From contig QPGO01000129.1 in the NCBI GenBank assembly GCA_008632985.1, forward strand, positions 1 to 64,000: 64,000 nt of DNA, read 5' to 3'. Of this stretch, positions 1 to 60,170 are shown one piece after another (the first letter of the stretch is position 1; every line of letters starts with the position of its first letter). Below the pieces are notes generated by a model, which saw nothing but the letters and a program-made list of their open reading frames with translations, was not told the origin of the DNA and searched no databases. The DNA is from Psammoneis japonica (lineage: Eukaryota). The translations under genes and the position numbers were made by a program.

Positions 1-503
1 AAAGCCAACAAAAAGTTGAGCCTGCTTTTGTGGTTGAAGGTGAAGAAATTGTGAGTGAGGTTGGGTTCAAGAGTTTGTTGGCAATGCCAAGTGGGCAGCC
101 AAAGAGAGGCACCAAAAATGACTGTGTGAAGTGTCTCTCACTCATTTCTCAAGAGGAGCTTGTGCTCATGATGCGGGGTCTGAAGCAAGCACCAGTCAAG
201 AGGACAAACAATTCTTTCCCTCTCTGTTCCACCCAAAACACAGCCTTTGAGTCAATGTGGTGCTCCTTCAACAATTGATGCACACACTGGGAGGAGCAGC
301 TGTGGAGCCAGGGCAGCAGGCCTGGCAGGGCTTGGCTCACAACCAAGCTGGGCTTCTCAGCTTGGCAGCACACACTCAGAGTCACATTGTTGCCCTCCTG
401 CAGCTGCAATGTGCCCCACTCTTTGCACCTGCAGCAACCACCCTGGACCAAAAGAAGCCAGTGCAACTCTGGCCCTGGTTGCATGGTCAAATTGTGTGTG
501 TGT
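1..503. other. TpA/CpG-erased degenerate repeat domain D1
   Basis: Hand scan finds 0 TA and 1 CG in 503 bp; strongly TG/CA-rich; no recognisable protein. Confidence 0.85.
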
Positions 504-8930: not shown

Positions 8931-9031
8931 TGTCCAGGAGTGAGATAGGAAGTACTGTGTTGTGTGCTCGATGCTTGAAGGCCAACAGCGGCACAACTGC
9001 GAATGCAATTGGCTGGCGCAATGCGATATAA

Positions 9032-9280
9032 CGCGCTCGATTTTTTTGGAAACTCGCATCGGCCATGGTGGTCGCGGATCGCTCCATTTGGGTCGTGCGA
9101 GTTTTTGTGAAATTGATTGGAGATGCGACAACCTTAGAGTCGGCCACTGTGTTGGTCTGTGAACTATGAAGAGAGTGTCTCTCGGCTCTGAGGCTTTGGT
9201 GTGCACAGAGAGAGTTGTGTGGAGCATCGCTGTTCGCTGTGCACAGCTGAAGCACTTTTCTCAGAGAAGGTCAGCAAAAT
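9032..9280 (+). repeat. Paralogous copy of the JmjC-locus upstream/5' module
   Basis: Matches 18923-19310, e.g. GGTCGCGGATCG...ATTTGGGTCGTGCGAG, TTTTGTGAAATTGATTGGAGAT and CTCAGAGAAGGTCAG vs CTCAGTGAAGGTTAG. Confidence 0.75.
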
Positions 9281-12670: not shown

Positions 12671-12680
12671 TGCAAGTTGT

Positions 12681-12915
12681 CGCGCTCAATTTTTTTTGAA
12701 AATTCGCAGCATTGTGGTGGTCGTGGATCATGCCATGTGTGTCGTGTGAGACAAACCTTTGCACAAAGTGAGATGATGCTGCTGTGCGGGTGTCACGAAG
12801 CATCCTCTGAGATGCTGGAAATTGTTGTTGTCATTGCTGCTGCCACAGTTGACACATTTTCAATGCAACAGGTTGAAAGTTGCAAGCTTGAAATCCCCTC
12901 TCATCTTTGGCTGAA
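12681..12915 (+). repeat. Further mutated copy of the JmjC-locus upstream module
   Basis: Aligns with ~18923-19150 (CGCGCTC-polyT-GAAAATTCGCA; GTTGACACATTT..CAGGTTGAAAGT..AAGCTTGA vs GTTGATACATTT..CAGATTGAAAGT..AAGCTTGA). Confidence 0.75.
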
Positions 12916-17779: not shown

Positions 17780-18860
17780 TTTCACCTTTCCATCAAAGAA
17801 TGTGTTGAATGAAGAAGTTCATGACACTGAAGAAACCCCCGAGAGGGAGGAAGCTGATGGCAAGCTTGTTCATGAGATGCCACAGTGTGCTGATTGCCAG
17901 TTTTGCTTTCTGACAGCTCCCATGCATCACAAGTGCATTTCAGGATCCTTGTCCTCCCAAGGGAGAATGTTGCAGAGCACACACACACCCCCCACCCAAA
18001 TGTGCCATCATCAGTGAAAAGGATTGTGAAGGCAAAGGAGGGCGCCGCACTGGAGACAGGATAAAATGCCGGGCCAACAACTGCCCAAAAGCTTTTGGAG
18101 CCTGCTGTGACCCCCATCCAGATGGACAATGCTTCCTCTTGAGGCCAGCTTTTTGCACATTGAAGAAAGGTGTGTCCAGGATCCACGACAAGCAACGGCG
18201 GTCAATGTTCACTCACATCACTCACACCTGCTGTTCAGCACAATGCGGCTGGTGCAAAATGATCTGTGAAAAGCAAAGAGATGCTCTGAGTGCTTCTGTG
18301 TTCATCAGCAGCCAGGAAGCACCTGCCTGCCCCCTTTCCCTGCCACCCCCGATCTGCGAGCTGGCATTTTCTTGGTGCTGACCTGGCATTGAAAAGAGGC
18401 CACAGCTGCAACAGCATTGCAGCAGAAATGCTGGCCAGGAATGCCATTTCAGTTGTGTCAACACTGGACATTGTGACATTGGGGCTCTTGATGACTGATG
18501 CTTTGGCTGCCTCTGCTCTGCCACAAGCGGCTCTCTCACTTCCTTCATCCTTGAAAGCTGTTCAAGGGAGCATGGCTCCTCCACTGCTTCGAGAAAGCAA
18601 GTTTCCAGAGTCAAACTCAAGTGGTTCTTTGAACCATTGCTGCAAGATGGGTGTCAACCCACAACAGAACAAACACTTTGACCCTGCCAGGGGCTGCAAA
18701 ACTTGCCAGCTAGTGGAAGCTGCCTGTGCCCTGTCGTCGAGCTTCTTCTTGTTCATGAGACTTTTCTCGCTGTTTTTCTCTGCGAAGAAGAAAGTGTCAT
18801 CTGCAGGATCCACAGATGACACTGAGCTGTCACTGGCAATGGCGATCAGTCCCTGCCGGT
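17780..18860 (-). pseudogene. Probable eroded gene divergent from JmjC
   Basis: ORFs 18562-18822, 18235-18471 and 17782-18195 read as one frame broken only by TGA codons (consistent with CGA->TGA); family not recognised. Confidence 0.4.
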
Positions 18861-19231: not shown

Positions 19232-21242
19232 ATGGCGGTGGCTGCAAAGTGTTGTCGGGCATCATTATGGGCGATTGCTATGCTTCTCTCAGTGAAGGTT
19301 AGAAAAATAACCTCCCTGATTGAAGCCCCTGCACTGAAAGACAAACACAGGCGTAAGGAATCACCGCATCATTCCCGTGGTGTTTCTTCGCAGAAACCCG
19401 GGCTGAGCACGACGGCCCTCCGCGATGCAACTTTTCGCTTGAGCTTGGACTCCTTTCCGAGCGTGGCGGTGATATGAAGGACGAAATTGAGCACTGCGAA
19501 GTTCTCGTGGGTTGCGCTGGAATCACTTTTTACCGGAATCGGCAGCACGACGACGACGATGCTAGCTTTATGGTTCACAACTTTATTCCGAAGGGAATTG
19601 CTACAACGGACGAAGCTGATTGCAGTGCCAACGACGATATCAAGATTGACAACGACGAACAGGATTGGAGACGAATTTATCGTAGCAAAAAGAATTTGTG
19701 CTACATAAGGGAAGGCTGGACAGCAAACATCACGGTGCCGACATACAATCCCATTCCTCGGTTTAGACGAAGCGAAATACTGGTGTCAAACCAATCCGGA
19801 TTGCGTTGGCTTTACCTTTCCAATAGAATCAACGCGCTTGGCTGTAGCAGAAAATATGACATTCTTCACCTCCATTTCAACCATACGTCGTGACGACGGT
19901 AGCTTGAACCAATGGCGAAGCTACATTTCCAACAATCCCGACAGAGCCGGCAACATTGTTTTTCAAAACATCAAACTCATTCACGACGAACTGACCGACC
20001 CGTACAGAACGAAACACTGCTGCACTCGTACAGAGCCTTGCCATCGCTAAAGGAGTTGAAAGCGATGGACAAGTTGGAGAGAGTGTCTTGCGAAAGCCTC
20101 TCCAAAGCTGACTTTCGAGCTCGGTACGAATCAACCCGCCAACCCGTGATCCTCGTGGGGTGCGACTCGACATGGCCCGCTTCACATAACTGGACGCCGC
20201 AACAATTATTCAAACGATTTCGTAATGAAACCAACTTTGTTGGTAGATTTCACAAGAGACTCGGCTATGCTTACAGTATCGAAACCTTGGGTTGGATTGC
20301 AGACGCCATGGCATCGGGTGAAGAATACTACGTTTTTGATAACCTATTATCCGATCCCAGCATTTTCTCGCTTCGCAATGATTTTGAATCAGAACCGGGT
20401 CCGATTGAAGACATGTATCTCAAGCTTGAGGATTTTCCTCCTGGGTATGGCCCGTCACGTTGGTTTACCTTTGGAGGTCCCGGCTCTGGGCTGGTAAGTA
20501 CAGACACAAATGATACAAGTAACAACGGCTTGGTGGGACGAATTGTTGCCGAATCGTATCCAACGAAGCATTCCGTTTTGTTTGTTGACAGCCGCCTCAC
20601 TCTGACCCGATTGCGAGTGATACGTGGAACTACTTGGCTTATGGTCAAAAGTGGTGGGTGCTGTATCCGCTGGAAGAGGAAGACGACCACGACAACTTGC
20701 ATTGCGATGACCGTTGCTCGGCGTACATGTGGAATACAGCGCATTGGTTTGCAACTGTGGGAATCAATGCCGCAAGGAATGAATACGATGCCACAGATGA
20801 TAAAAAGAGACCCATCCATGTCTTACAGAAACCGGGTGAAATCTTGTACATTCCAAATGGTATGGTTCACGCCGAAATGAATCTTGCCCATTCCACAGCC
20901 GTGGCTGCGCTCTTTGCCTCGACACAAAATTTGGAGGCTGTTTGGGGCACTATTGTTGGTCTAGGAGCTGATAAACATTGGAGACGTGTATACTATGGAG
21001 GCATTTTGAACAAGGAACAACGCAGGGTCGTTCGCGACGTCAGCTACGAGTGGCCGCCAGTCGCTGGAGACATGTACTATTTTGACGGCCCGTTTCTTGA
21101 CCCCGCAAAAAGATTAGGAAAAGAAGCAGATGAATACCGGGAATATGATGATGATGATGAAATGTGGGAGGACGACGACGAAATCTGGGACGAAGACATA
21201 GACGATGACGACGCATGGGAGGAGTACTGGGATATAGTTTGA
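19232..21242 (+). CDS. JmjC-domain 2OG oxygenase (JMJD6/JMJD8-like) with N-terminal Cys-containing repeats; frameshifted as assembled
   Basis: RWFTFGGPGSGL|PPHSDP (HxD), YGQKWWVLYP, LQKPGEILYIPNGMVHAEMNL; intron 20494-20591; acidic tail; frameshifts near 19745 and 20040; start codon uncertain. Confidence 0.85.
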
Positions 21243-30727: not shown

Positions 30728-32903
30728 TCTGCTACTTAAGAGAATGGTTTTTGCTTCCAATCTCTAGCAGTGATACTTTCTTACATGCACAAGTGCTCTT
30801 TTACAGCTTTGTCAAGTCTAAAGAATGGCATGCTACAACTCTTGCACTTGCTTGCTTCTTGCGTCTTTCTGGGGCTCGGGCGCCTTCAACCAATGATCCC
30901 TGCTTCAACACAATCCAGCAACCTTTGCACTCTGCATTGTCATGCGTCTGCAAAGAAAGCACTCTGCACACAAAATTCTCACATGAAAACAACCAACAGC
31001 GTGATGACTTCACGAAGGTGCACAAAAAGGAAACAGCAAAAGAGAACAAAAAAGGGAATGCAGACAGCGAGGAATCACACTGTGTTGTGTTTGATCTGCA
31101 TTGCATGATTTGCAACACACAGGCTCTTTTTCAAGGAAGCAGCATGTTCACATGTGTTCACAATTTTGCAGTGGAAACTGTGTCATTGGCAGATCAATGC
31201 CAATTGATCCACTTGGGCTTCTCACAGCTTTCAGCCCATGTCCAAATTGCCAAAGTGCGTGCCTCTGACAACTCAAAGTCTGGCATCACCCATGACGTGA
31301 AGCCCTGGCCACCAAAGAACTCTGACTGAAGATTGCTCATGCAAAAAAATCAACAAACAGCAGCTTTGCGTGTGGTTCCTCTGAGCCAAAATGCCTTTTA
31401 ATTGCGCTTTTGTCCACAGCAGCAGTTTTTTCCGGTCTTTGCACCAAGTTTTTTCTGCGCGTGCTGTGAGCCATGTCTGGACAGCTGCAACAACAAGAAA
31501 TGAGCAAACTCAACAAAGCACCCACTGCAAAGAATCTGAAGCATGGACTAAAATGACTGGCAGGGAGGCACATGTGTGATCTCATTGTGCTCTTGTTGAG
31601 CTGCAATGAGGCCCACCTGGGGTGCTTGCAGGCACCTTGTTGCTTCTTGTTTGTTCGTTGCAGACGGCTCTTGACATGCCCAACTTGGCAGCAAGCACAG
31701 GACATGAGGTGAAAACTTTAACACTCTCAGAATTGTGAGTGCTGACTGACTTTTTTTGCTTGATGTTGCTGGCTAACTCATCATCATTTCTTTTCTTCTT
31801 GGAGGGGCAGTTGGGGGTGCTGACAAGGAAAGACAATGACAGAGCTCTTGAATGCCTTCAAAGCTGTTGTTTTTTTGAACAGACTGTTGCTCTCATTCCC
31901 AGAAAAGCAGGGTGCAGTGGGTCTTTGCTTTTTGCAGCATTTTGTGAGCCTTGCATTGCTGGGCAGCTTTGGTGCTTTGATGGGCCCTGCAGTTTGGAAA
32001 TTGGGCATGACTCAGTGGCATGTGTTGTGGCAAGTGAGTGGCAGCCACATGACCTTGAAGGACCTGGTGTGGCAGGGCACTGCATGGCACCAGCCACACC
32101 TGGCACCAGGAGCCACAGCAGCAGTGTGCACAAGTGCTGTGAGCACAGCACCCCTTGGGAGTTGAGAGACGATGAGGCAGCCCACCTCTGGAGTGCTCCA
32201 GAAGCAGGGGGTGGAGGAAAGACCACAGCAAGCCCTGCGCAGCAATCTTGAAATTGGCAAGTGCTTCTTTGCTTGGGATCAGGGTTGGGCTGTGACCCCT
32301 CAGTCTGCTCTCAAGCAAAAGCAGCAAGAGCATCAACTTCTCTTGGTCATCAGCTCATTGTCCAAAATCTCATTTGTTGCCACATGAAAAACTTTCTCCT
32401 CATGAAACTCATGCAGATCCAAAGAGGTGACAAGCCAGCCAAGCGCCAGTGCATCTGGCAACAAAATTGCTGCCCAAGAAGGGAGGCTCCACCCATGTGC
32501 TCAAAGTCACAGAGACACCACTGCACCCCAACAGCAGCAATCATCAGCATTGGACCATGCAAATGCTGTCACCCACTCCTTGCCATGACCATCTGAGCAA
32601 GAACATTTGCTGCCACCATCACTCTTCAACTGCTCTTCAACTTGTTTGTTCATGGCTTGCTGGCTCTGCTGCACAAAACAGCAGCACACAACCACAGGAA
32701 GGAGTTTTCATCTGTTTTTGGATTTTCTCTCACCCTCTCTTTTCATGGGTGCACTGGTCAGAGAAAAATGCAGCACACACCATGTTGTCATTGGAATTTT
32801 TGGAGGCTTGGCAGCACAATTGAGCACTGGCTGTTGCTGCCATCAAGGTTGGCATGTGTTTCATTTGTGGTTTGTCTCAGCAAGCAAAATTGTCTGGGCA
32901 TCA

Positions 32904-34225
32904 AAAGATGCACACTTGTCTGGGCATCAAAAGATGCGCGCGCGACTTGTTCCAGACTTGGGTGCGCTCACGCGCGAAAAAATGACCCTTTTTGCATGAA
33001 ACGTGCGGTCCACACTTGCGGCACCATTTTCAATGGTAAAAAAAGACAATTTTCAAATGTGTTGTCATGGGCAGAGCAGAATGCAATTCAAGGCCCGGCT
33101 AAGAACTGCACCTGTGAAGACAACACAATGCGCGTGCATTTCGCTTTTTTGTTCATTTGTGTGAAAGATCTTGTTGAACTTGTCAGAAAAAAAATCACCC
33201 CGCTCTTCCAAATCTGCACAGTTGATGAGTTTTGGCGCGTGAGCCAAAATGTCCAACGAGCCAGGAGGATGACATGGTCATGATTTAAGGCCCTCCACAT
33301 CACATGCGCAGAATTGGCACTGCGTCCCACGTGGGATCCCCACATCGCATCGACACGACACAAAAGATGCGCCATGGCGCCGCCAAAGAAGCCTTCGAAG
33401 ACAGAAGAATGTGCTCCATCATGCTTGTTGACTGTGTCATCTTTGTTCCTGAAGGTCAGCACAGCAAGGAGAAACCAGTTGAAATTTTCAAAAGCTGGAA
33501 GAGTTCAATGAGAGGCGCCGGAGAAGCAGAGGAGAGCTGCGAGGAGCAAGGCCAGTCAATCCATGGGCTGCTCAGGATCCATTCATGCGTGTCGACATGT
33601 TGAGGATTGGTGCAGTGTTGTTCATTCAGACCTCCATTTGTGGTGGCACAGTCATTTTTTTGCAGCTGCACTGCAGGTGGAAACGGCCGTTGACCATTCG
33701 TCGCGCACTGTTCCCGTCATGTGTTTGTGGAGCTCGTGCCTCGAATCCATCATTTGAGCCTGATGGCACAAGGGCCTTTTAAATCACGCCAGGCCTTAAA
33801 TTGCGCTCTGCTCTACATGCCGGTGCAGAAAGGTCTTGTGCGTGTGCCCATGCATTCGAAACTGTGGATGGACTCAGTTGTTGGTCGCTAAATTGCGCCG
33901 CAAGTTGAGAGCTCTGTTTTCCGAGGAGCGATTTGCAGATGTCTCAATGTGTGCAGAAATGCACAAAATGTTGTTCTCACATGCAAGTTGAACCTCTAAC
34001 ACAACACAATTAATCTTTGGCTAAAATGCGCGAACACAACTGTCATTCAACGGATCGAGTGAAACATGCGTTGATCAATGAGTTTCGGACGTGAGAAGAA
34101 GGGCAGCTCAGCCCACGCAGTGGCATCGACTTCGGACCATTTTTCACTGTTTAAAAGGCAAAAACGATTGATGCACTTCAATCAGTCGAATGTGTTGAGG
34201 AAATGTTCATGGCAATGGCAAAGAA
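32904..34225 (+). repeat. ~1.3-kb direct repeat, copy A
   Basis: Highly similar to 34972-36295; differences are mostly CG/TG/CA/TA transitions. Confidence 0.95.
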
Positions 34226-34971
34226 CGTGTCAGTGAAAAGGCAAGCTCAGTGGCAGAGCTTCGCCGATCGCAGGACGAGGTCGAGGGTTCGAGCCCCTCC
34301 CTTTTTCCGCACACACGTGCTTGAACCGGCAACCCGGAAACGGGTTGAGGTCACTTGCTTGACGAAGTCGCCCCACCTGCATTCGACAACCCTGACAAAC
34401 ACAAGACGTGTTCCAGCCCCAGGTGATGCACAAAACGACAATCGGGTTTTGAGCACAATTTGTGCATGTTTTGGTGCATGTGGCATTTTGACAAAAACAC
34501 TTGGACGGATTGACTTTCACAGGCTTCTGGAGCATGCACATTTGAACAGTTTTTTGAGGGGTGTTCAAATCCTCATGGGACATGCATCACAAACTTCCTC
34601 AGCAGACTCAGTGCTGATTGCACGTCAGTGGATTTACACTGAGATTTTTTTGCAGGCAGAAAACCTGCCAAGCAGCATCGTAGAAAAATGTGTTTGGGTG
34701 ACATCCAAACAACGGCAATGTTTTTGTCGAAAATCATCCGTTGCACTGCGAATCTTTTGACGCAATGAAAAACATGGATGGCACAATGACAATGACATTG
34801 CAACACTCACACGAGTCTTGTTGGTGTTGCAAAACATTTGTGTTTGTGTGAATCTGTGCTTTTTGTGGTGAAAGTTCGATCGCAAGTTGGGGGCCGCGCA
34901 AAAATCACGCAAATGTTGTTTTTGTGCACGATTTGGTTCACGTGCGGCTGGAACACGTCACAACAAACAAC

Positions 34972-36295
34972 AAAGATGCACACTTGTCTGGGCATCAAAA
35001 GATGTGCGCGACTTGTTCCAGACTTGGGTGCACTCACGCGCGAAAAAATGACCCTTTTTGCATGAAACGCGCGGTCCACACTTGCGGTGCCATTTTCGAT
35101 GGTAAAAACATGACAATTTTCAAATGTGTTGTCATGGGCAGAGCAGAATGCAACTCAAGGCCCGGCTAAGAACTGCATCTGTGAAGACAACACAACGCGC
35201 GTGCATTTCGCTTTTTTGTTCGTTTGTGTGAAAGATCTCGTTGAACTTGTCAGAAAAAAAATCACCCCGCTCTTCCAAATCCGCACAGTTGATGAGTTTT
35301 GGCATGCGAGCCAAAATGTCCGACAAGCCAGGAGGATGACATGGTCATGATTTGAGGCCCTCCACGTCACATGCGCAGAATTGGCACTGCATCCCACGTG
35401 GGATCCCCACATCGCATCGACACGACACAAAAGATGTGCCATGGCGCCGCCAAAGAAGCCTCCGAAGATGGAAGAATGTGCTCCATCATGCTTGTTGACT
35501 GTGTCATCTTTGTTCCTGAAGGTCAGCACAGCAAGGAGAAACTGGTTGAAATTTTCAAAAGCTGGAAGAGTTCAATGAGAGGCACCGGAGAAGCAGAGGA
35601 GAGCTGCGAGGAGCAAGGCCAATGGATCCATGGGCTGCTCAGGATCCATTCATGCGTGTCAACATGTTGAGGATTGGTGCAGTGTTGTTCATTCAGACCT
35701 CCATTTGTGGTGGCACAGTCATTTTTTTGCAGCTGCACTGCAGGTGGAAACGGCCATTGACCATTCGTCGCGCACTGTTCCCGTCATGTGTTTGTGAAGC
35801 TCGCACCTCGAATCCATCATTTGAGCCTGACAGCACTGGGGCCTTTTAAATCACGCCGGGCCTTAAATTGCATTCCACTCTACACACCGGCACAGAAAGG
35901 TCTTGTGCGAGCACCCATGTGTTCGAAACTGTGGATGGACTCAGTTGTCAGTCGCTGAATTGTGCCGTAAGTTGAGAGCTCTGTTTTCCGAGGAGCGATT
36001 TGCAGATGTCTCAATGTGTGCAGAAATGCACAAAATGTTGTTCTCACATGCAAGTTGAACCTCTAACACAACACAATCAATCTTTGGCTAAAATGTGCGA
36101 ACACAACTGTCATTCAACGGATTGAGTGAAACATGCGTTGATCAATGAGTTTCGGACAACGTGAGAAGAAGGGCAGCTCAGCCCACGCAATGGCGTCGAC
36201 TTCGGACCATTTTTCACTGTTCAAAAGGCACAAATGATTGACGCACTTCAATCAGTCGAATGTGTTGAGGAAACACACATGGCAATGGCAAAGAA
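34972..36295 (+). repeat. ~1.3-kb direct repeat, copy B
   Basis: Highly similar to 32904-34225. Confidence 0.95.
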
Positions 36296-36673
36296 ATGGT
36301 CCTTGGAGGCAAATTGTGAGTGAGTTGAGGCTCAGTTGTTGTTGCTGACAGATTCAGTGTCATTGTGCCGCGCTGCAGCCTGCAACAAGCATTTTCACTG
36401 TTGTTGTTGATGCCTTGGACCATGTCAAATGCGGAGGTCCTCGTCATGACATCAAATTTTCCACAAGGCTGAAAAAAGTGGGCCGTCATGGTCACTGAAA
36501 GCCATGGCCGGTTTGGCTGTTTGTTTGTTCGAGTTCATTCTGTTTGTTTCACTTGTGAGCAATTTACATGATCAACACAATGAAACATGTGCGATGTTGA
36601 ACAAAGCACAAAAAATTGTTTTTTCTGCAAAAAGGGGCATGTGCGCGCCACCCAAGTCTGGAACAAGTCGCGC
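35006..36673. mobile_element. Putative non-autonomous TIR DNA element
   Basis: 25-bp GCGCGACTTGTTCCAGACTTGGGTG at 35006-35030 (also at 32940-32964) has a perfect inverted copy at 36649-36673, plus a subterminal inverted match ATGACCCTTTTTGCA / TGCAAAAAGGGGCAT; no TSD or transposase recognised. Confidence 0.55.
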
Positions 36674-38219
36674 CTCTGCCAGAGACAATGGTGCATTCTT
36701 CTGGACCAGGTCAGGCACAGACAGAAAGCAGTGTTTGAAATTGATCCATTCATCAAACTTCAAATGATTGTTCAAATGTGGAGATTTTGCTGTGATCATG
36801 AGTCACCTCCTCATGAGCTGGCCAGCCTGCATTGATTTTGGTTTCTCTGTCATGCTTTGAGTTTTTTCTTCTCTTGTCTTGTCCCACCAACAGAGACAAT
36901 CATGTGTTCATCAAGGCAGTGTCTCAATGTCTTGGTCAAATCACAAAATGACACAAAGCAGCACTCTTCACCCAGCAACAAATCTGCTGTTGCATTTGTT
37001 GATGACTCCACTGAAAAATGGGGCCATGGCAGCTGCAACAGAAACTTGGTAATTTTTTTCATGGTTGTTGTCATGATGTGCCGGCATGGTGGCATGAAGT
37101 CATTTTGGGACCCGATTCTGAGTGTGGCTCAGGTGTCCCATGTCTTTCAAGTTTGCTTGGATTGTTTGAGAGCTCCAGTGAAAAGACTTTGATGGCCAGT
37201 GGTTTGTTGAAGGTGAGCAGGGCTTTGGACAAAGAAATTGTCAGAAAAGAATGTGGCACATTCAAGGTGTTGTTTGACCGTCATGTTGAACTCAACAGGG
37301 TCTCCTCTTCAAGACAGAAAGACCATCAAGTGTGGGTTCTCAGGGTTGGATCTTTTGCTCCTTGGGCAGAAAAATGTCCTGCATCAGGTCAACACCCGAA
37401 TGGCAAATTTGCAAAAGGCTTTGTGGCACATGGGTTCAGGCCAAAGAAGCATGCAACAGAAAGCTGTGACAGAGATGACACTTGGGATCACCAAAATGCA
37501 AAAGGATTTTGCTTGCAACTGTGTTGTGCTGAAGGAAAACAAGCTTGCCAATGAGAAACAAAAGATTGCTGATGACAAGGCAGTCTTTGGGTCTGTGAAA
37601 CTGGACAAATCACCCACTGGCACATTGTGTGGCATCACTCAACAATTGTTGAACATTGATGACAGCATCGACAATGAGATGGAATCTTGTGTCAAACAGA
37701 AAAAAGTTGTCAACATGCACTCAGCATGCTTGGTGATGTGGCCACAGCTTCATTTGCTGCACTGTTTGCTCCTTGACACATTCATCATTTGGATGATTTG
37801 CAGGATGGAAGCTTGAGCAAGGAGTCAGTGCAGCTGGCTCACTTTCTGCATTTCCAGATGATGACACAAATTCAGATCAGTTTGTGTTGTTGCTGTCACC
37901 CCAAACCCAGCTCTGTTCATGCTGTCACTGTTGCGATCATTTGCTCCTCCTCAACACATTTGTCACTTGGGCGATTTGCATGATGGAAGCTTGAGTGATG
38001 AGCGGGCATGATTGGCTTGCTTTTTGCAATTGCTGTGAATTGCAATGCAAACTCAGATCAGTTTGTGCTGTCACCGTCACCACAAATTTAGCGCTGTTTG
38101 TGCTGTTGCTGTCACTTTCTCCCGGACAAATGATTTTGACTTGTTGCATCTTTCAACGATTTCGTAAAATCCAAAGCACATTCCGCCCTTTGAGTCTGTG
38201 GCACCATGGCAGAACAAAG

Positions 38220-38900
38220 TCATCCAACTCCAGCAACAGCGGCTTGGCCCTTTTTTCAGTGGTGAGTGGATGGGTGCCTGTGCTGGAGCAATGGCTGTGG
38301 CTCACCCTTTCATTTTGGCACACGACTCTGCCCACCTCGGCACCATGAACTGCTCCGTTTCATCCCAATGACTCTCTGCTGCTCCTGCCATTCTTCTCTT
38401 GGACAACAAGGCAGCTGTTCAGATGAGCGTCAATGACCAGCAGACCAAAGTGCACGAGCCACATTGATCGAAGTCACCAACATGTCCGAGAGGGGCACCA
38501 GTGCGGCCATCATGTCCTTGTTTGGATCCCAGCAGAATCTCAACTCTCGGACATCCTCACAAAAACTCAGGCCGCCGAGAAGATCTGGATCATGGCAGAT
38601 CGTGCTCTTTGGCATCTCCCTGCATGCATGACCTCTGGCCAGCAGAGCTTCATCCCACATTCCACCATTCAATTCAGGGGGGGGTTGACAGGAATCGACC
38701 GTCATCACGGTCGCCACTGTCAATGGCCGACCGTTGTCAAGGTGGCTGTTAGAATCTCATGGCTGAGCAATGCCCACAGTCAGCTGAGAATGACTGAACT
38801 GTTTGTTTTGCGTGGGAATGATTTTTATGAAATCTGCTCCGTGCTTGCCGACTGTTTTCAATCAGTTCTCGGTTCAGAGACTGGCTCTGAACCTCTCACA
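38220..38900 (+). mobile_element. Ty1/copia (CoDi-like) remnant: RNase H, polypurine tract and 3' LTR
   Basis: GEWMGACAGAMAVAH, ILLLDNKAAVQM, TSHIDRSHQHVREG, LVWIPAESQLSDILTK; PPT AGGGGGGGG at 38676-38684; LTR-like TGACA...CA ~38686-38900. Confidence 0.85.
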
Positions 38901-49960: not shown

Positions 49961-50671
49961 ATAGCTATACAACAGAGGAGCGGCCGATCGCATGCTGTAG
50001 TAGTGCCATCCGGTTAATATTCTAGTAGTGGATCTTTTATTTTAATGCATGTCATACGTGTGGGTGCTTCGTCCCGTCGACCATAGCTAATCAATGGTGT
50101 TCACTCTCTACAGGGCTCTGTTTATCTCCATCTTGCGCATGGAAGGAGATTAGTCTACCCGAGAACCATGTCTGTCATGCCACTCGGGTTCGTGATCGCA
50201 TGCTCAGGGCCGACAAGAATGCGGAAGATTCAAACTCTTGGTTTTCAGGTTCTTCGGGAAGAAAGGAAAAGAGATGGGTGGTTGCAGCGCTTCTTTTCTT
50301 GTTTGTACCCACATTTTTCATTGAGTTTTTCTTTGCACTGAGTCAGCAGTTTCTCGTGGAGGGGGTGCTGATCCCTTTGCCATTGGACACCAACCAGATT
50401 GGGCGCAGTTCTTGTGCTCACCACACTGGACGCGTGTACGGAACGATTGCGGCTTTCATCTGCTTCCTTGACAACATGTTTGCTTGAGCCATTCATGTGG
50501 ATCCAATCGCCACAGTGAAATCCTGCACCGTCCATTCTCGCATCGCATCGATTGATCAACACTTGTGTGAGGATTAGACAGCTTCACCAGGTGGCCACAG
50601 GAGCAAGCCAGCTGCTGTGAAAAGCAGATGCCATGAAGTGGCTGACAGACAGATGGAAAAAGAAGCCAAAC

Positions 50672-51102
50672 ACAGTGTGGCACAACAATTCTGCTTCAGG
50701 CAAAGTGCGAAATGCACTGCTCCATCACACCACACCCTGCCACCGGCACAATGTAAGAAGAGTCCATGACATGAAGAAAGTGCCAAACACGTGCTTGCTG
50801 TTGGGGGTTTTCAATGTGCAGGACAACTGCAGCACTGACAAGACTTTAAGAATTGGTCCTCTCCATGAAAACACCTGCAAAGATCATTGTCCATGTTGCT
50901 CCACACAGAAGCTGAATTCAGTGGCATGGTGCAACAACTCTGCATCAGGCAAAGCATGCTGTGCACCACACCATCACACCACTGTGGTGCACTGCAAGAA
51001 CGTGCTTGCCATTGGGGTGTTTTCCAATGTGCAGAACACCTGCAGCGCTGACAAGACTTTAAGAGTTGGTCTCGCTGAACCTGCAAAGATCATTGTCCCA
51101 TG
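50672..51102 (+). repeat. Diverged tandem duplication (~200-250 bp units)
   Basis: AACAA(T/C)TCTGC(T/A)TCAGGCAAAG...CTGACAAGACTTTAAGA...CCTGCAAAGATCATTGTCC occurs at ~50672-50895 and ~50920-51102. Confidence 0.8.
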
Positions 51103-51449
51103 TCACTGTCTCTCTTCCCTCCATGGCACATCCTGTCAATTCAAACAGAAACTCCAGGGCTGTGTCTGTGTCACCTAAAAGGATCCACCAACTGAAGACC
51201 CAGCACAAGACATGCCATTGTCACACTGCCCAAGGGAGCAGATGGCACAGCACTGAAATGACTGAACACATTCCAGCCACAAAAATTGACAAATTTCCAC
51301 TGTTGATGGTTGAGCACTGTTGCTCATTGTTCAGAAGGTTGCAGCATTGTTTTTCTCCTTTGACCCATTGTGACAAGGACAACTCATTGCAAGGAGGAAG
51401 CAGGCAATCAAGTTGCCCACCCTGGCAAAAACTGGCAGTGCACCCAAGC

Positions 51450-52050
51450 AAGTTCCAATCAGCATGTAAATTTGTTGATCAGTGGAGATTGAATCTGTCA
51501 ACCTGCACTTTGCCAAGCTCTGCCAGGCAGGTGCAAAGCAACACATTGTGTGGTTGAGAGAACATCCATTTGCTCAGACTGACCCAAGTGCAAATGCTTG
51601 ATGCAGAACAACTCAACAGTGTGTCAACATTTTGATGATCATCAGCAAACTTGCAACAAAAGCTTTGATTCTCACAGGAGGGTGTGTGCACATGACATGT
51701 GGGAGATCACATGTGCTGACAGCAACAGCAGGTTTGCAGGCATGGGCCATGTCACAGATTCATGTGCAGCTGGCTGAACATGTTGCAAAAAGAAGTAAAA
51801 AGATTGGGTCAATTCATTGAAACACACAGCCATGCAATCCTCTTGAGTGATCTCTGAAATGGCATTCAGCCATTTTTCTTCCACTGCATTGCACAAGCAC
51901 ATTTCAAAATTGACAAACAACTCAGTGCCACAAATCAAGTCATGCCATGCATGTGCTGTTTGTCGCAGGTGGCTCACATGCTGTGACTTCTTCTCTGGTT
52001 TCACCTCGCAGCACAGTTCCTTCAATTGATGAAAAAGGAGTTCAAGCATT
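51450..52050 (-). mobile_element. Possible gypsy gag remnant
   Basis: GTELFVNFEMCLCNAVEEKWLNAISEITQED resembles gag-region motifs of stramenopile gypsy elements (from memory, unverified). Confidence 0.4.
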
Positions 52051-52555
52051 TCAAACAGCAGCAGCAGGACCTTTCAAGTCAAGAAGATGGGTGTTGCCAA
52101 GTGATGTCATTTTGATGGAGTTTGACAAAACCAGGAGAATTGGTGGTGGCTGTGCTGCTCATGTTTTTGATGCTCCTCACAACATGCCTGCAACATTTTT
52201 TTAGGCTGAGCAAGAACACTTTGTTGTTGGCTCTAGATTGTGTCGTTCCCATGAAGGAGCCACATCATTGGGCCCAAGTCCTGCAATTGGTGCACTGCTC
52301 CAGATCAATTTGATGAGTTTGAAGACAATTGTGAGGACAAACCAGACAATGGCTGTGACAGCCAGAGGGATGTGACAGTCACATGCTTGAGACAAAATGC
52401 AAAAGATCAGGAAGAAGTTGCCAAAAATTTGGATCATCTCATGGACAAACAAAAGGCCCAACTGTTGGGGATGTTGAGGAAGCACACTGTGCCATTTGAT
52501 GGAGTGCTGGGCCACCATCTGCATGAAAAGGTGCACTTGGGATTGGAGGCCCATG
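52040..52555 (+). mobile_element. Ty3/gypsy pol remnant (protease to pre-RT linker)
   Basis: FQTAAAGPFKS..DVILMEFDKTRRI..HVFDAP and HLMDKQKAQLLGMLRKHTVPFDGVLGHHLHEKVHL (ancestral ..KY..LFDG.LG.Y). Confidence 0.7.
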
Positions 52556-53458
52556 TGCTCAGCTTCAAGGGGGGTCATCGCTGCTCCAGCACGACCACCT
52601 GTCTGCTCCAACTCCGCCTGGTGCTCCAATGCCACCTGGCAGCAGCTGCTGGCTGCTCCAAGGCTGACATCAGAAATTGCAACTCAAGCAGTGAGCAACA
52701 TGCAGTGTGTGTGTGTGTGGGGGGGGGGGGGGGTGATCAGATGGCAAAATGACATGGGGCAGCAGCTTTTGTCTGTCTTTTGTTTTCATCTCACCTCTCT
52801 TTTTCACAGATGCACAAATCAGAACCAAACGCAATGTGCCATTCATTTGAAATTGTTCCATGCTCTTGAATCTGTTGAGAGAGAGAACAAAAAATTGCAG
52901 TGCAAGGGGTGAGCAACAAACAGTGTGAAAGAACAAAATGGTGGCAAAAAGCCACACACATGTGTGATGGCGGGCACTGTCTCTTCATTTCTGGATTTTA
53001 TCTCACCAGCCTTTACATGCATGCACTTGTCAGAACAAAACACAGTGCGCGCTTTATTGGAAATGGTTCCTCACAACGGGGTTCTTGTCGATGTTGTTGT
53101 TGAGTGTTGAGATTTTTGAATGACATGATGTGATGATGTGAATTTGGATGTCGTGCGGTCTGGCCCTGGATGCGTTTTCTGGGGTCACGTGCTCAACAAC
53201 GGTCGAACCCCCCTCGCTTTTTTTCTTTTTTCTTTTTTCCCTTTTCCTTTTGCCCGGCCTTGCCCACCTTTCCGCATCCCTGTCTGGAAACTACTCTCTA
53301 GCTAGGGCATAAAATCTTTGAGGGTGTGCAGTTATGCTGGTTAGTGTATCACACCAACAAGCACCAGTGTGCAAATGACAATCAGGGCTAAAGTTTAATC
53401 CTACGAGAACACTAATTCTGCGGAAAGACACCACACTTGAAAATTCGTTCTCGCACGA

Positions 53459-53965: not shown

Positions 53966-54849
53966 CGTCAGTGCTTTTTCTTGACGCCTTTTGCAAATTT
54001 TAAGAAGAAAGTGGCACTTTGAGGAGTTTCTCATCTCTCATCTTCAGTCGTGCTCGTATCCGCGAATGCTCTCTGCTCCAGACGTGCTTAGCGGTAAAAC
54101 CGTAGTCTTTCTCTCTATTCCTTCCTTGATCCTGCCTTTCTGGCATCGTAGCTGGTTCCTGTACACCGCACAAAAGAAATAGGATGTCCTCAGTGGAGGA
54201 TGTTGTGTGAACGCCTCAAGTCCTGCTTATTCATTATCGGTCAATTTGCGTCTCTCATAAGTCGTGCTTTGCGGTGAAAACCGATGGACATCTTTTTGCC
54301 TTGTACCGTTCGGGAGCCGTGCCGGTACTACACTGCACAACAGATAATAATATTGTACATACGAGATGAGAAATTGCGTCTTCTGGCTCCCTTGTCGCTT
54401 TTTGTGCCTGCGTCAGCAATGTGGCCGTGTTGGATGGACACAATCGATTCAATACAGTCAACGCATTGCCAGAAAACACGTTTCAAGGTGACGGTGAGAA
54501 TACTGGCGACACGCATTTTCACATACCCAAAAACCCAACAACACTCCTGTGCTTAGACAGCTCAGGATTCCTCAACGGTGTTGGCAATATGTGTAGATCG
54601 GACGTCCAAGCCAAAATGTTTCCTCTTCAACTCATCCAGTGCCAAGTCCATTGAGCCCGTTCCTGACACCCTGGCAACTGGCAACAACATCGCACCGTCT
54701 TCGTCATTTTGTCCGCGGAACTTGAGGATAACGTGTAGAACATGTAGACTCGATGCGCTCTCGAACCCGGAATCCACTGGATTCCACACGCGCAGTCTTG
54801 GCTTTGTCGCTTGCCAAAGCTTGTTGCACTTGTGATGATTTGCGCTCCA

Positions 54850-57800
54850 TCCTGGGTCGCGAAGCATCCATCAACCAGCAGCAGATGCCTTGCGCAACCC
54901 TGGTGCTAAAATGGCTAACTTTAACGGATTTTTCCTTCACGTCCATGACGCTCATGGGGGGATCGCACAGAGATTGACAATTGACCCAGACTTGGTCAGA
55001 TCAGTCTCCAGAGTGGTTTTTTCTTGTGGAACAGCATGGCTGACACCAGCACGCCGTGTGGTGCCTTGGCGATGCGTGTGCATGCAGCACCTTCTGCTGT
55101 GATTTCCCTTCCCAATCCTGCACCACATGCTTGGTGTGTGTTGGGTCAATTTCACAGAGGATGTTGACCAGAGCTCCCCACAGGTGGGGGCAAAGTGGCA
55201 GAGGCAAAGTGGCAGATGATGCTTCCTCAAAGGCAGAGACAACAGCAGCAAGGGTTGTTCCAAGAGGAAAGAAAGGCCAAGATCAAAGCAGTGGGAAAGA
55301 GCAGTGGAGTTGCCGGGCAGCAGCTGAGCTCTGCGAGTGGCAAAGCAGAGGCAGCAGAGAGCAAAAAGTGAGGGCCGCAAGGAGGGAAGGAGCAGCGGCA
55401 GTGATGGCAGAAGGGCATCAAAGACCAAAGCCACCAAGGGAGGAAGCGCAAGCTGGCTGACCCTGGGCAATGTCAGACTGTGCACAGATGATTGTCAGAC
55501 CATTCTAGACGGACAAGATTGTCTCTCTGAGATCTTCTCTTGCTCTTGCTTGCCAGCACATGCGTGTCATCCACTGTCACCAATTTGCAGCAAAGGGCTC
55601 TTTGGCTTGTTGTTCATGCCACTGCTGCTCTGACAGGTTGTGGCCTTGTCAAGCTGTCATTCTTCTGTGCCGCAACCTGCACACACCACGAGTGACTCTT
55701 TTGGTTTGTGAGGAGCTGAGCAAGCCGGCAATCATTTTTGAGATCCTGAAAGTGACATTTTTGATTGGCGCACAGGCTCTGCAAATCAGCACCAGGTTTC
55801 TTTTTGTGCTGCATGATCCAAAATTCTGCGCACCTCATCAACCACAACAACTTTGACCCAAGAAGCCCATTTTTGATCCGTCAAAGAGATTTCTGTTGTC
55901 TTTGTGCAACACACTTGCAATCGTGTAGTCACAAAACACTTCAAAAGCCTTTGTGCTGGTGTTGTCATTGACTTGGATAAAATTTTTGAAGATCCAAAGC
56001 ATGCAAGGGCTCAGGGCCAAGGACGACATTGTTGACGTGCTTCAGGATTGCATCCTTCAAGAGCCAATCATTCAAGAGACCTCAACCCTTTCAACACACT
56101 GCCGGCTGTGTCGTTCTTTCAGAAAGCATCCCTCAAGGTGGCCAGTCCTGCATCCACTGACCAAGTGTCTCATCTGTCCCGACAGACAATGGACCATAAA
56201 ATTGAAGAAGCACTTTGAGCTTGGTTTGTCAAAGTGGTTCTTGCTGTTGGCATCTCCCATCTCCACTTTGCCCCCACTGCGCAACATGTGCTCAGGGGCT
56301 GGAGTGAGTTCTCTGACACAGCGTGCTCACCACCTCTGCACTCCCAAGACCCCATCACCATCATCTGAGAATTCAGGCTCAACCAACATTTCCAATTTGA
56401 TTGGTGCCCTGAACAACAACTGCGCTGCATCCAAGGCATCTGCAACTGGAAGTTCTGGTCAAATCAAGCTCCTGCTGCAACTCTGTCATGAAAATTTTTG
56501 TTCAGTGCAGATGTTCCACCCAAGGACATGTGTGCTTGTTTTGATTGCAAGGCTGATGAAAAAACAATTCTCTAGAACTTGCAAGTTGGATGCTCCAGTG
56601 GTCACAGCCATCATCTGGGTGGCGCTGGTTGATCAACTCCACCATGATGACTCTTCTCATGGCATTTGCCAGTGGTGCCTCAATTTTCAGCAGCATGCCA
56701 CCAGTTGTGGTTGTCGTGTTCATTCAAGCACAACCATGGCAACAACAGAGGCTTTGCCATCAGAAATGGCCCGGATGATGATCTCCCACAAGGCATGCAC
56801 ATCCATTGTCTCAAAGCATTGCATGCCCCACACAAGCTCCTTTCTCAGTCAGACATGTTTCAAAAGAACAGCTGCGTGCACTGCACTGTTGCTTCTTCAT
56901 GCTGTGGCAGTGGCTGCAGTGCCTTGAAGCAACTCCATTTTTAAGCACACCCAGCGAACTGTGAGGAACAGCCAGTTTGGCAGACTTCTGTCACAAGCAA
57001 GGGAACCTGCCTTTTAACAACTGCTGCTTTGTGCTCTTCAACAATTTTTGGCAGCTGTGTGCACTCATTTTCAATGCTGACTCATCCTGATCATTGTGAG
57101 ACAAACAACTGTCTTTGTCAAGAATGCCAAGTGCTCCAAGCATTTGCTTGTCAAGGGTTGCCAAGCACTGACATGTGTTGTCAGCTCATTTGTGCAAATG
57201 TGCCAAAAAGCAGATTGTGGAGACCCTCAGTTTCTTCTTGAGCCAAGCTGACAGTCTGGCCTGCATGGAATCAGCTTCTAACTGGGTTTGCAATCTGCAC
57301 TGCCAATGCGAGCATCATCATGTGAACAATTTGAGTTGCCCTCCGGTTGGTGTCAATGCATTGGACATTGCAGCACCGCCAACCATTGAAGATTTTTCAC
57401 CCAATGCAATGCCCACAGACACCGCATTTGAGCTGGATGACGTGTTGGTTCTGCAGGACAAGACTTTTGCCCCCCCCCCCCCCATGCAATGAATTGCATT
57501 CTCTTGATTCACCAACAGCACTGACAATGATTGCCTTTTGCATTGCACTTGCTCTGCGCATGCCTTCAAACTCAAGGTTGCACCAAATTGGGGTGCCAAA
57601 CACGCCTGTGTGTCTTTTGTGCTGGTGGCCATCTTTTCAAAGATTGTCCCATCCTCAAGAACAACCCTCATGTCAAGAAAGGCAGTCACATTTGCTTCTG
57701 CCATTTCTTGAAGCAAGCAGCTGCTTAACCTGCTGCCATCTTTGCTGGCAACCAAGGAAACTTGCCTGTTGGACAGACTGGGCAAGTTCTCCTGCTTGCT

Positions 57801-60170
57801 GATTCTCTGCCATTGGGGTCTCAGTCGGGCCATTGCAGCTGGTTTCAGATCTTCAATGCAGCCCATTCTCTCCTCACCAAGACAGCGCCAATGATTGGGG
57901 GAAGCTGTGAAAGAGGGGCACAATTTTTGTTGCCTTCCACTTCAAAGCCCATTTTTCTAGATGCCGTTTTGGACATTTCTTGCCCCATCTCCTCCCCGAT
58001 CATGCCTGGCTTCATGACTCTCCCTGATGATGATCCTTTGCCACATGGTGGTGTTGATCAAATGATCAAGAACAGGGGAGAGCAGAGGAAGTCATTGAGC
58101 AAGAGTTGGACCCTTTCAACCTTGAGCACTCCAACAATTGTGACAAACCTGGTTTTGCTGCTGTCAACTTGGCACAAATCTCCACCAACAAACCATCTTG
58201 GGTGTCTCCAACTGTTGCGTTCAACAAAGGCTGCAAAGCCTTCAAAGTGAGTGCCATCACCTTAGAGACTGATGATCACTGTGCTCAGTTTGATGCAGGC
58301 AGGCATGTGTGTTTCTTGTGCCAGTGATTTGGATCTTCTCCATCATTGTGCCAACTGTTCATGCCAGCCAACAAAGCTCCCTGCACAAGTGTTTTGTTGC
58401 ATGATGCTTTCAGCTTTTCCTCAAGATCAATCACCTTGCAGCTGCTCTCCACCTCTGGTGAGATCTTGCAGCTGGATCCATCTCAGATGCATCTCAACTT
58501 GCTTCCGTGGCTGCCTTTAAACCGGGCAAAGAGTCAGTGAGCCTGGGCAGAAGCATGAGCGACATCAGAGTGAGGAGGCATCAAAGATGCTGTCAGGATG
58601 GAGGAGTGGATGGAGTGTGTGTGATGCAGCACATGGTGAATTTGCAGATGGGATGGAACAAGCAAGTGTCTGTGTCATGGGCAGAAAAGAAATGAAGAGC
58701 ATGCACAGAAAGGTGGTGTGGGTGATGAGTTGTGGCTTGAGGTTTGAGTTGCACATTGGGAGTGGGAGGGGGCTGGTGCATGCTGCCAAAGTGATCATTG
58801 GCAAGTTGGCTCCAGGCAAAGTCAGCAAAAGAGAGGAGAAGCAAGGGCATGATGGAGGAAGGCAGAACAGGAAGTGTTGGCATTGATCCCATGCTCAAGT
58901 GGTGTGCCTCAGTCGAGCAGGAGTGGGGAGGGCACAGACAGACTGGGAGAAAGAGGGTGAAGAGGAGCATCTTTGGGTTTGGTGATGTCAACTGTGGTTC
59001 AGTGAGATGGCGGGCAGGGGCAGAGAGGGAAGCAAGGGGGGCAGAGATGCTGGCACACATTGGCGGGGTGAAAAGAACAGGGCAGAGGGAAAGAACATCA
59101 CAGGCTCAAGATGGAGGGCAAGTGGATTGCAGGCTCATTGGGTGAGTGACACAACTTGGCAAGGGCCCCCAGCGTTTGGGAGATGATGAAGATGGCATCA
59201 CTGAAGCCATCATTGGAGAGCTTGAGCTTGTGGCTGTGCTGGCAGGAAAAACAAAAGGTTGCTGCAGACATCAAGGGAGGCATGGCCTCATGGGTCATGG
59301 GGAGAGCCATCAAAGCAAGAAGCAAGAATGAGAAGGTGATGTTTCTAAAGGGCAAGGTGGGAAAAGAAAAATTGGCAGAAGAGGGAGCAGAAGGGGGAGA
59401 CTTGTGCAAGGGGGGAGAGGAGAGAAAGATGACAGCAAAATTTGAACATCAGAGGGAGCATCAGCAAGGGCAGAGGCAGCAGTGGGCTGCTGATGGGCAT
59501 GGCGCAAATGGTGGGTGAGATTGGGGGTTGTGGCTGACTTGACAAGGAAGGGCTGCTGAGGAAGTGGCAGAAGATGGAGAGTCGGAAGCCTGGGCAAAGG
59601 CAAAGGCAGAGATGAGAGCAAGGGTTGTTCCAAGAGGAAAGAGAGACATTGGAGCAGCAGAAAAAGGCAGCAGAGTCACCGGGTGGCAGCTGAACTCTGC
59701 GAGTGGTGCAAGGCAGAGGGAGGGAGCGAAGAAGAATGGTCGCAAAAAGGAGGCAAAAGGCGCGGCAGTCGTGTTGGCAGAAGGGTCTCAAAGACAAAAG
59801 CCACCAAGGGAGGAAGAAAGGCAGGGAGGGAGTTGACATGGCAGGTTGTGCAGCAAAGAAAGTGATGGGAGATGGTGGTCGAGGAGAGTGCCCCAGGTGA
59901 GAGATGCCGGGAAGCACCAGGAGCCAGGATCATTCACGGGCAGGGCCAAAGTTGTTGTGGCAGAAATCAACACACCAAGGTGGGCAGAGGAAGGAACAAA
60001 GCAGTGCTTGAAGAGCAGGGCTTGAGTTTGCTTGTCATGAAGGCGAGTGAGGAGTTTCTCCACCTTGGTAGAGACGGTGGAGGACATGTCAGAGAGGAAG
60101 GAGTTGGCTAAGGCAAGGCTAATCGAGGAGAGCCCAGAGGCCTCTGTGGCAGAGCGGGCATCATCACTGG
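54850..60170. other. TpA/CpG-erased domain D5 (unidentified element, minus-strand coding fossil)
   Basis: Residual TA nearly all CTAA/TTAA/CTAG/TTAG; minus-strand frame from ATG 60087 interrupted by TGA; purine-rich plus strand at 58560-60170. Confidence 0.88.
55195..55450 (+). repeat. Diverged copy of 59560-59825
   Basis: Shared GCAAGGGTTGTTCCAAGAGGAAAGA, GCAGCTGA(G/A)CTCTGCGAGTGG and CAAAGAC(C/A)AAAGCCACCAAGGGAGGAAG. Confidence 0.85.

Follow-up and report, generated by a model that had tools for sequence, protein, structure and literature searches.

The 64-kb stretch of eukaryotic DNA analysed here (64,000 b, referred to as the window) contains five domains, together 26,570 b or 41% of its length, in which the dinucleotide TA has almost disappeared and CG has been strongly reduced, while TG and CA have accumulated. 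We consider it probable, at roughly 60%, that these domains carry the accumulated traces of a regionally targeted hypermutation, which converts TpA to TpG or CpA and is of the type found in the alga Bigelowiella natans. That TpA-targeted regional hypermutation obeying the flank rule described below took place in this DNA is a conclusion in which we have high confidence, and adenine deamination as the chemistry of the TpA change is held at somewhat less than even odds.

Domains were called from counts of TA, CG and TG+CA in 250-b bins, with edges placed by change-point analysis. D1 (1..503), incomplete because it runs into the window start on one side and an N gap (504-935) on the other, contains no TA and a single CG. 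D2 (9166..18859) retains 21 TA (2.2/kb) and 99 CG (10.2/kb), D3 (30835..38749) retains 29 TA (3.7/kb), D4 (50157..53291) retains 14 TA (4.5/kb) and 47 CG (15.0/kb), and the 5323 b of D5 (54746..60068) hold 16 TA (3.0/kb), 78 CG (14.7/kb) and 1120 TG+CA. Within D3, the segment D3b (32750..36700) has lost TA (5.6/kb) and kept most of its CG (43.5/kb). Bins inside the domains showed 0-3 TA and 0-7 CG, and their TG+CA counts rose from about 35 to about 57. Pooled TA density amounted to 3.0/kb in the domains when compared to 39.9-40.3/kb outside, and individual values ranged from 0 to 4.5/kb for domains and from 37 to 47/kb for the five normal stretches. Similarly, the longest TA-free runs measured 503-1263 b in domains and 135-184 b outside them. 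For D5, the flanks of which have 41-47 TA/kb and 50-53 CG/kb and which includes a TA-free run of 828 b, an earlier note on this DNA had proposed a span of 54850-60170. The domain is real, but TA change-points at 54923 and 60069 were obtained, and its edges are better placed at 54746 or 54923 on the left and at 60068 on the right.

According to the change-point analysis the edges of the domains are sharp, with transitions over tens to hundreds of bases, and at seven of the eight internal edges the TA-poor zone exceeded the CG-poor zone by 70-816 b, the left edge of D3 being the exception. In the case of D5, the TA-poor zone extends beyond the CG-poor core (55076..59680) by 153 b on the left and 389 b on the right. 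The TA mutator seems to extend one or two nucleosome lengths past the CG-poor core, possibly reaching into neighbouring genes. Shoulders without TA and with normal CG density were seen at 53055-53291, 54746-54965, 50157-50550 and 18735-19033. When 80 metagenome loci near relatives of the G-protein beta subunit (G-beta) gene of the window were scanned as a control (309,355 b), not a single 600-b segment with three or fewer TA was encountered; the best relative among these loci is 62% identical, and the control therefore says little about close relatives.

The direction of change can be read from the dinucleotide balance. In strand-symmetrised counts, TA dropped from 39.9 per kb in normal stretches to 3.0 in domains and CG from 56.2 to 16.9, corresponding to a summed loss of 76.2/kb, and CA and TG each increased from 73.3 to 110.5 per kb, corresponding to a summed gain of 74.4/kb at unchanged base composition. 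In every domain the TG count equalled the CA count, that is, the data are strand-symmetric. The same direction is evident from a pair of gene copies. On the forward strand, D2 harbours a hypermutated copy of the 5' part of a JmjC/cupin gene (11731..12662), and an unmutated copy with normal TA and CG density, followed downstream by JmjC/Cupin_8 matches, is located about 380 b beyond D2 (19235..20210, also forward strand). When the latter was taken as a proxy for the ancestor, with 4-mers containing gaps left out, its 28 TA sites corresponded in the D2 copy to 15 TG, 9 CA and 4 other dinucleotides, with no TA kept, and its 62 CG sites to 28 TG, 25 CA and 8 others, with one CG kept. Per strand, A>G changes were found at 24/57 adenines preceded by T, as compared to 20/145 after A, 18/125 after C and 15/124 after G; C>T changes were found at 54/125 cytosines followed by G, as compared to 17/123 before A, 11/91 before C and 7/99 before T. 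These context counts reveal one specific change at TpA and another at CpG, both of which end in TG or CA and are superimposed on ordinary divergence. The identity of the two copies of 71.6% increased to 82% once pyrimidine-purine (YR) steps had been collapsed. Since the normal copy, at a distance of only about 380 b from D2, was spared, targeting follows the domain and not homology.

A search with all ORFs (open reading frames) of the window of at least 60 amino acids (tblastn) yielded no further pair of mutated and unmutated paralogs. Runs of same-strand outcomes were not detected either, with runs-test z values of -0.98 to +2.32 for the domains and of 0.64 for the paralog alignment. An origin of the D2 copy as a retrocopy was considered and rejected, since its 56-b gap relative to the normal copy falls in an open frame and lacks clean splice ends and homology continues upstream. 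Partial copies of one upstream/5' gene segment occur three times, at the left edge of D2 (8956-9284), inside D2 (11731-12750) and outside its right edge (19152-20214), and D2 may have grown via local segmental duplication.

Tandem copies in D3 indicate when the changes were made. Copy 1 (32904..34225) and copy 2 (34972..36295), both on the forward strand, are 94% identical, and 98% identical after YR collapse. They differ at 44 YR-step sites, comprising 12 TG-versus-CA, 27 CG-versus-TG/CA and 5 TA-versus-TG/CA differences, and show only 16 other substitutions in 1326 alignment columns. TG-versus-CA differences imply that the ancestral sites were converted independently, in place and after the duplication; among those with unchanged flanks, 6 of 11 have R..Y flanks (R, purine; Y, pyrimidine). 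From these counts we estimate that the per-site rate at TpA would have exceeded background more than 100-fold and that at CpG by tens of fold. The duplication at 32904-36295 consists of a CG-rich 1.3-kb unit with a period of 2068 b, has no Pfam match and lies in a stretch poor in TA that retains CG; it may be the youngest hypermutated DNA of the window.

Surviving TA sites differ in their flanks from the TA sites of normal DNA. The 80 survivors of the five domains were distributed as 52 YTAR, 18 RTAR, 8 YTAY and 2 RTAY, whereas the 1381 TA of normal stretches comprised 239 YTAR, 367 RTAR, 345 YTAY and 430 RTAY, so that 17% YTAR and 31% RTAY would be expected (chi2 = 114.8, p = 1e-24). TTAA accounted for 25 of the 80. 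A similar distribution was obtained when one tandem copy was dropped (47, 16, 7 and 2 of 72, in the same order; p = 9.8e-23), and the bias persisted when the flanks of all TG+CA within the domains served as baseline (p = 3.2e-17). By domain, YTAR made up 14/21 survivors in D2, 19/29 in D3, 6/14 in D4 and 13/16 in D5. Counts given in the earlier note for D2 (14 of 21 YTAR and no RTAY) and for 33001-34200 (9 of 11 YTAA) were exact, and its description of D5 survivors as mostly YTAR agrees with the full list of 4 CTAA, 5 TTAA, 3 CTAG, 1 TTAG, 1 GTAG and 2 ATAA, in which RTAY is absent. It had also been claimed that in the JmjC alignment YTAY usually becomes TG and RTAR usually becomes CA. We find 7 TG, 1 CA and 2 other outcomes for YTAY and 4 CA, 1 TG and 2 others for RTAR, which means that 11 of 13 directional outcomes follow the proposed direction (binomial 0.011, calculated by hand); TG:CA ratios were 4:3 for RTAY and 3:1 for YTAR.

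A simple model accounts for these numbers. In a Poisson product model with four parameters, the A of each strand survives independently with a probability set by its 3' neighbour, and this model fitted all 16 NTAN contexts (N, any base; deviance 13.1 on 12 degrees of freedom (df), p = 0.36). Survival independent of the flanks, the outcome that would have spoken against a context rule, was rejected (deviance 156 on 15 df). Estimated survival was 0.82 with A, 0.29 with G, 0.13 with C and 0.04 with T as 3' base, corresponding to hit rates of T 3.3 > C 2.1 > G 1.2 >> A 0.2. The second 3' base contributes as well. Among TAAN half-sites, A occupied position +2 in 56 of 92 survivors and in 197 of 594 normal cases (p = 2.7e-6), and TACA and TAGA were enriched too; the share of A at positions +1/+2/+3 was 0.57/0.57/0.35 in survivors and 0.22/0.25/0.28 in normal DNA. 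Because A at +2 is also protective, the resistant motif is T(T)TA(A)A, similar to TAAA/TTTA, rather than simply YTAR. The model further predicts TG at 63-94% of YTAY sites. For Y..Y flanks in the domains, a gain of 12.6 TG/kb versus 6.6 CA/kb was observed together with a loss of 9.8 TA and 12.0 CG, from which a TA->TG share of 0.67 follows if CG conversion is unbiased. An event of A->G in 5'-TAY-3' on either strand, as initially suggested, is supported by the 3'-base model, by the 11 of 13 paralog outcomes and by the twofold TG excess in Y..Y flanks; the choice of A->G over the complementary T->C is the part of that suggestion that the sequence does not settle.

Loss of CG follows a flank rule of its own. 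In the CG-poor cores (19,770 b), CG survival ranged from 0.057 for TCGA to 0.50 for GCGC, and a per-strand model gave survival values by 5' base of 0.29 for T, 0.31 for A, 0.45 for C and 0.67 for G (deviance 14.8 on 12 df, versus 61.6 on 15 df for the null). Mutability thus decreases in the order WCG > CCG > GCG (W, A or T), that is, 5' T = A > C > G. CG loss is slower than TA loss and affects a slightly narrower zone. As TA is lost and CG is largely kept in D3b, the two losses are separable; arithmetic on the composition counts gave an about 7-fold increase of CG loss from D3b to D2, when compared to an about 2.4-fold increase of YTAR loss, and we lean towards two processes or two doses as the explanation for this contrast.

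Taken together, the results show changes that occurred in place after duplication, on both strands and confined to the domains. The adenine of each strand is hit independently, at a rate determined by its 3' bases, with T > C > G >> A at +1 and protection by A at +2. This rate rule erases RTAY, tends to turn YTAY into TG and RTAR into CA, and allows T(T)TA(A)A to persist. As to the chemistry, we infer that the TpA change would be an enzymatic deamination that leaves hypoxanthine in place of adenine in DNA, carried out by a deaminase of the ADAT2/TadA type, or by another one, that is targeted to silenced chromatin; the CpG step would consist mostly of 5-methylcytosine deamination within these silenced domains. 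For the agent, our leading guess is a DNA adenine deaminase similar to ADAT2/TadA, the gene of which would be expected to encode the motif HxE-PCxxC (10.64898/2026.01.13.699255; PMC10354150). In the tRNA substrate of ADAT, U precedes the edited A; we know of no link between ADAT2/3 or TadA-family DNA deaminases and chromatin domains. A bolder version, in which one chromatin-directed ADAT2/TadA-type deaminase erases both self-complementary YR steps in a stramenopile distant from the one organism known for TpA hypermutation, attacking the A of TpA fast and the C of (T/A)CpG more slowly, seems doubtful to us. If it were true, dose and not the presence of two systems would explain both the greater width of the TA zone and the stretch that retains CG, and erasure of TpA and CpG would be a widespread eukaryotic genome defence, resembling repeat-induced point mutation (RIP), with a readable sequence rule.

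Several points weigh against the hypermutation reading as a whole or against parts of it. The survival values presuppose that the domains initially had the same NTAN composition as normal stretches. In the CG-retaining stretch, the make-up of which departs strongly from the baseline, the composition-based TA->TG share was 0.34-0.49, which does not support a bias. The only TA in the D2 gene copy aligns with a CA of the normal copy, and some surviving TA may therefore be newly made. No Pfam match to a deaminase was obtained among the 20 ORFs from normal stretches of the window that were scanned. From sequence alone, A->G is indistinguishable from T->C on the complement. The 3' order T > C > G >> A corresponds to none of the deaminase contexts in the literature consulted. 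It is unlike that of ADAR, which prefers a 3' G. It also differs from the GAA preference on DNA reported for BjADAT2 (PMC10354150). Pfam, viral-contig and representative searches do not establish that the domains are foreign or viral, and D2 carries a copy of a host gene. Finally, the grounds for assigning the window to a second lineage are indirect, consisting of the best G-beta identity of 60-62% and of the long, intron-poor ORFs.

Among other explanations, the one that fares best makes thymine the mutated base, and we judge it unlikely. TET/JBP-like oxidation of the thymine of TpA in silenced chromatin would yield 5-hydroxymethyluracil or 5-formyluracil, which mispairs with G and leads to T->C, and the flank rule would then concern the 5' neighbour of the T, in the order A > G > C >> T. 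5-Formyluracil is indeed mutagenic. Owing to the strand symmetry of the data (TG = CA per domain), the survivor, paralog and model results can equally be described as T->C, and, provided that CpG is methylated, a purine preceded by a 5-methylpyrimidine would be common to both lost dinucleotides. On the other hand, the 5' orders differ, with T = A > C > G for the C of CpG and A > G > C >> T for the T of TpA, and we know of no thymine-modifying enzyme or modified base that gives TpA-specific transitions. Adenine deamination is also the option favoured by the authors of the work on B. natans in the text available (10.64898/2026.01.13.699255).

Less likely still is biased short-patch mismatch repair, in which a system that restores T:G to C:G in methylated domains would also fix G or C at replication mismatches in TpA. 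Very-short-patch repair and the scarcity of CTAG in Escherichia coli provide an analogy, and the losses of TA and CG share domains and both yield TG or CA. However, TA loss is the faster and the farther-reaching of the two, as judged from the densities in D3b and from the wider TA zone at 7/8 edges, which is unexpected for a by-product of the repair of deaminated CpG. The TpA rate estimated from the tandem copies, more than 100-fold over background, also argues against it, as does the finding that the process of B. natans is switched on in some lines only, at about 1000 times the baseline (10.64898/2026.01.13.699255).

Error-prone synthesis at WA by a Y-family, eta-like polymerase during patch repair appears very improbable. 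Polymerase eta produces A->G at WA, with TA as the hottest site. A comparable loss of AA had been proposed as the sign that would favour this enzyme over a TA-specific deaminase, yet AA density was 79.6 per kb in normal stretches and 82.5 in domains, and the frequency of A>G after A (20/145) resembled that after G and C. Since AA is not lost, polymerase eta is disfavoured, and the strong dependence on 3' positions +1 and +2 is not a WA rule. We give even less weight to the absence of any mutator, which would mean that foreign virus or transposon DNA arrived already poor in TA and CG or that selection removed the dinucleotides. Many viruses reportedly avoid CpG and UpA, and D5 is a multi-copy sequence; against this stand the host-gene copy in D2, with its site-by-site replacement of TA and CG by TG and CA relative to the unmutated neighbour, the 12 TG-versus-CA tandem sites, which reflect independent conversion after duplication, and the domains' lack of detectable coding capacity. 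A sequencing or assembly artefact, for instance miscalls at modified bases, can practically be dismissed, because contigs of run X1 (depth about 62; X1 is possibly the source sample, and its agreement does not constitute independent support) match the window over D4 and D5 with the exception of 7 substitutions and 5 indels across 49500-61500, and because miscalls on two strands would be expected to leave TA or CG at part of the sites and not only TG or CA.

The domains themselves are without detectable coding capacity in homology searches with their ORFs. Of 122 domain ORFs of at least 90 amino acids, 120 had no Pfam match and two matched below the curated cut-off (DUF5439 and DUF1179). Two domain ORFs had no relatives in viral contigs, and a 332-amino-acid ORF of D5 gave no match among 1.84 billion representatives. 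D5 contains a direct repeat of about 220 b that resembles a long terminal repeat, with its left copy at 55228..55446 and its right copy at 59601..59816 (both forward strand), spaced by 4370 b and 75% identical, or 81% after YR collapse. Extra contigs that are 90-95% alike cover 55.5-59.9 kb, which makes D5 a member of a multi-copy family. The forward strand of 58540-60000, including the right direct repeat, is strongly purine-rich, with a GC skew of 0.43 and an AT skew of 0.40 at 59001-60000.

As to the host, the window is of algal type with long and intron-poor ORFs, the products of which include CPSF-type beta-CASP proteins, a G-protein beta subunit, an ENaC/ASC channel, a sulfatase, a DUF3110 protein and JmjC/cupin proteins. 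All G-beta relatives that carry an organism name are from diatoms, with top identities of 60% in a protein collection and of 62% in metagenome contigs. The proteins of the window are missing from that protein collection, and its DNA occurs in a single study. B. natans genes are intron-rich, unlike the long ORFs of the window. The window thus probably derives from a diatom-like lineage other than B. natans and would represent a second lineage for TpA hypermutation. TpA makes up 4.0% of dinucleotides in normal stretches, as compared to 6.0% stated for the B. natans genome (10.64898/2026.01.13.699255).

Contigs of a second run, X2, splice out 110 b at the start of the G-beta gene (joint 60473->60584, removing 60474-60583 with GT..AG ends), as expected for an intron. 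The spliced joint and an uneven depth point to RNA as the material of X2, despite its listing as "DNA?"; its contigs are confined to normal stretches and leave D4 and D5 uncovered, which, for a run that behaves like RNA, is not evidence that these domains are silent. For a 1103-amino-acid ORF of a normal stretch the protein atlas gave no usable match, and Rfam and tandem-repeat scans of the window returned nothing relevant. A 597-amino-acid sulfatase ORF in normal DNA (41419-43212, reverse strand) has its top relatives in planctomycetes and verrucomicrobia (54-58% identity, with about 73-77% of the query aligned) and is a candidate for bacterial gene transfer, without loss of TA or CG. An ORF for an AlkB-type 2OG-Fe(II) oxygenase (PF13532, E = 2.7e-27; 2OG, 2-oxoglutarate) in the normal DNA between D2 and D3 (27110-28375, reverse strand) is probably unrelated to the mutator.

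TpA-specific hypermutation of silenced integrated DNA has already been described, in one preprint of 2026 and for one organism. The window adds the flank rule, the rule for the coupled loss of CpG, the greater width of the TA zone and, probably, a second lineage. The same footprint, at saturation and in a seemingly unrelated alga, bears on how widespread the editing of invader DNA is among eukaryotes. Any candidate enzyme must reproduce the quantitative per-strand rule (+1 T > C > G >> A, +2 A protective). The coupled yet separable CpG loss with its WCG preference recalls the TCG preference of ADAT2 and could be due to one enzyme or to two. In practical terms, the domains (41% of the window) hide genes and mobile elements from homology searches, and collapsing TA and CG to TG and CA recovers hidden similarity, as in the increases from 71.6% to 82% and from 94% to 98%.

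Our literature search returned no report on domains in diatoms in which TA and CG have been converted to TG or CA, and TpA hypermutation was found only in the B. natans preprint (Mettrop et al., bioRxiv, April 2026; 10.64898/2026.01.13.699255). In the mutation-accumulation lines described there, 231 of 302 de novo mutations fell into an integrated nucleocytoplasmic large DNA virus (NCLDV) and a virophage. The rate in both viral regions was about 6e-7, all but one of these mutations were A>G/T>C, the text places all of them on TpA, and they arose in some lines only. The genome contains 124 clusters poor in TpA and rich in CpA and TpG, and an ADAT2 homologue was proposed as the enzyme (10.64898/2026.01.13.699255). 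Judging from the available parts of that preprint, both cases have in common A>G/T>C changes confined to TpA that give TpG or CpA, a regional action with a huge contrast, and footprint clusters with few annotatable genes. In contrast, mutations were measured de novo in B. natans whereas only the footprint is seen here, and the active targets there are NCLDV and virophage, whereas in the window viral or transposon homology was not found and D2 holds a host-gene copy. The main text of the preprint, as available, makes no mention of CpG, flanking, context or trinucleotide, whereas a +1/+2 rule and coupled CpG loss are described here (10.64898/2026.01.13.699255).

Decay of CpG in methylated DNA resembles the present case in that CG turns into TG or CA in silenced domains. 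It would account only for the CG half, and spontaneous 5-methylcytosine deamination could share the flank order T = A > C > G or differ from it. With fungal RIP the domains share heavy in-place transitions in duplicated or mobile DNA, skewed dinucleotides, genes that become unrecognisable and a slight leak past the target. However, in RIP the C->T changes take place chiefly at CpA and TpA becomes more frequent, whereas here TpA is erased, C->T occurs at CpG and C>T before A is at background (17/123). Also, RIP hits both duplicates, whereas the copy at 19235-20210 is untouched, though both tandem copies of D3 are mutated. Diatoms carry the RID-related DNMT4, a protein of unknown function according to the accessible text (PMC9998398).

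Hyperediting by ADAR likewise consists of A->G changes with a preference for a 5' U or T, as summarised in the B. natans preprint (10.64898/2026.01.13.699255). ADAR-type editing via an RNA copy was nevertheless rejected, given that TG equals CA in every domain, that same-strand runs are absent and that adenines with G on the 3' side mutate less readily than those with T or C. ADAR is a metazoan enzyme that acts on double-stranded RNA, whereas here both DNA strands are affected equally and the copies, which take in upstream sequence, are duplications at the DNA level. A second ADAT2 that acts on DNA, TbADAT2, is cited in the available parts of two of the sources used here (PMC10354150; 10.64898/2026.01.13.699255). 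The ADAT2 of amphioxus, BjADAT2, accepts A as well as C in DNA as a substrate and prefers GAA for the former, TCG for the latter, and hairpin loops, as far as the consulted part of its description goes (PMC10354150). Its A context, GAA, differs from TA followed by a 3' pyrimidine, but its TCG preference resembles the CG flank rule of the window, where cytosines preceded by T or A are the most mutable (PMC10354150).

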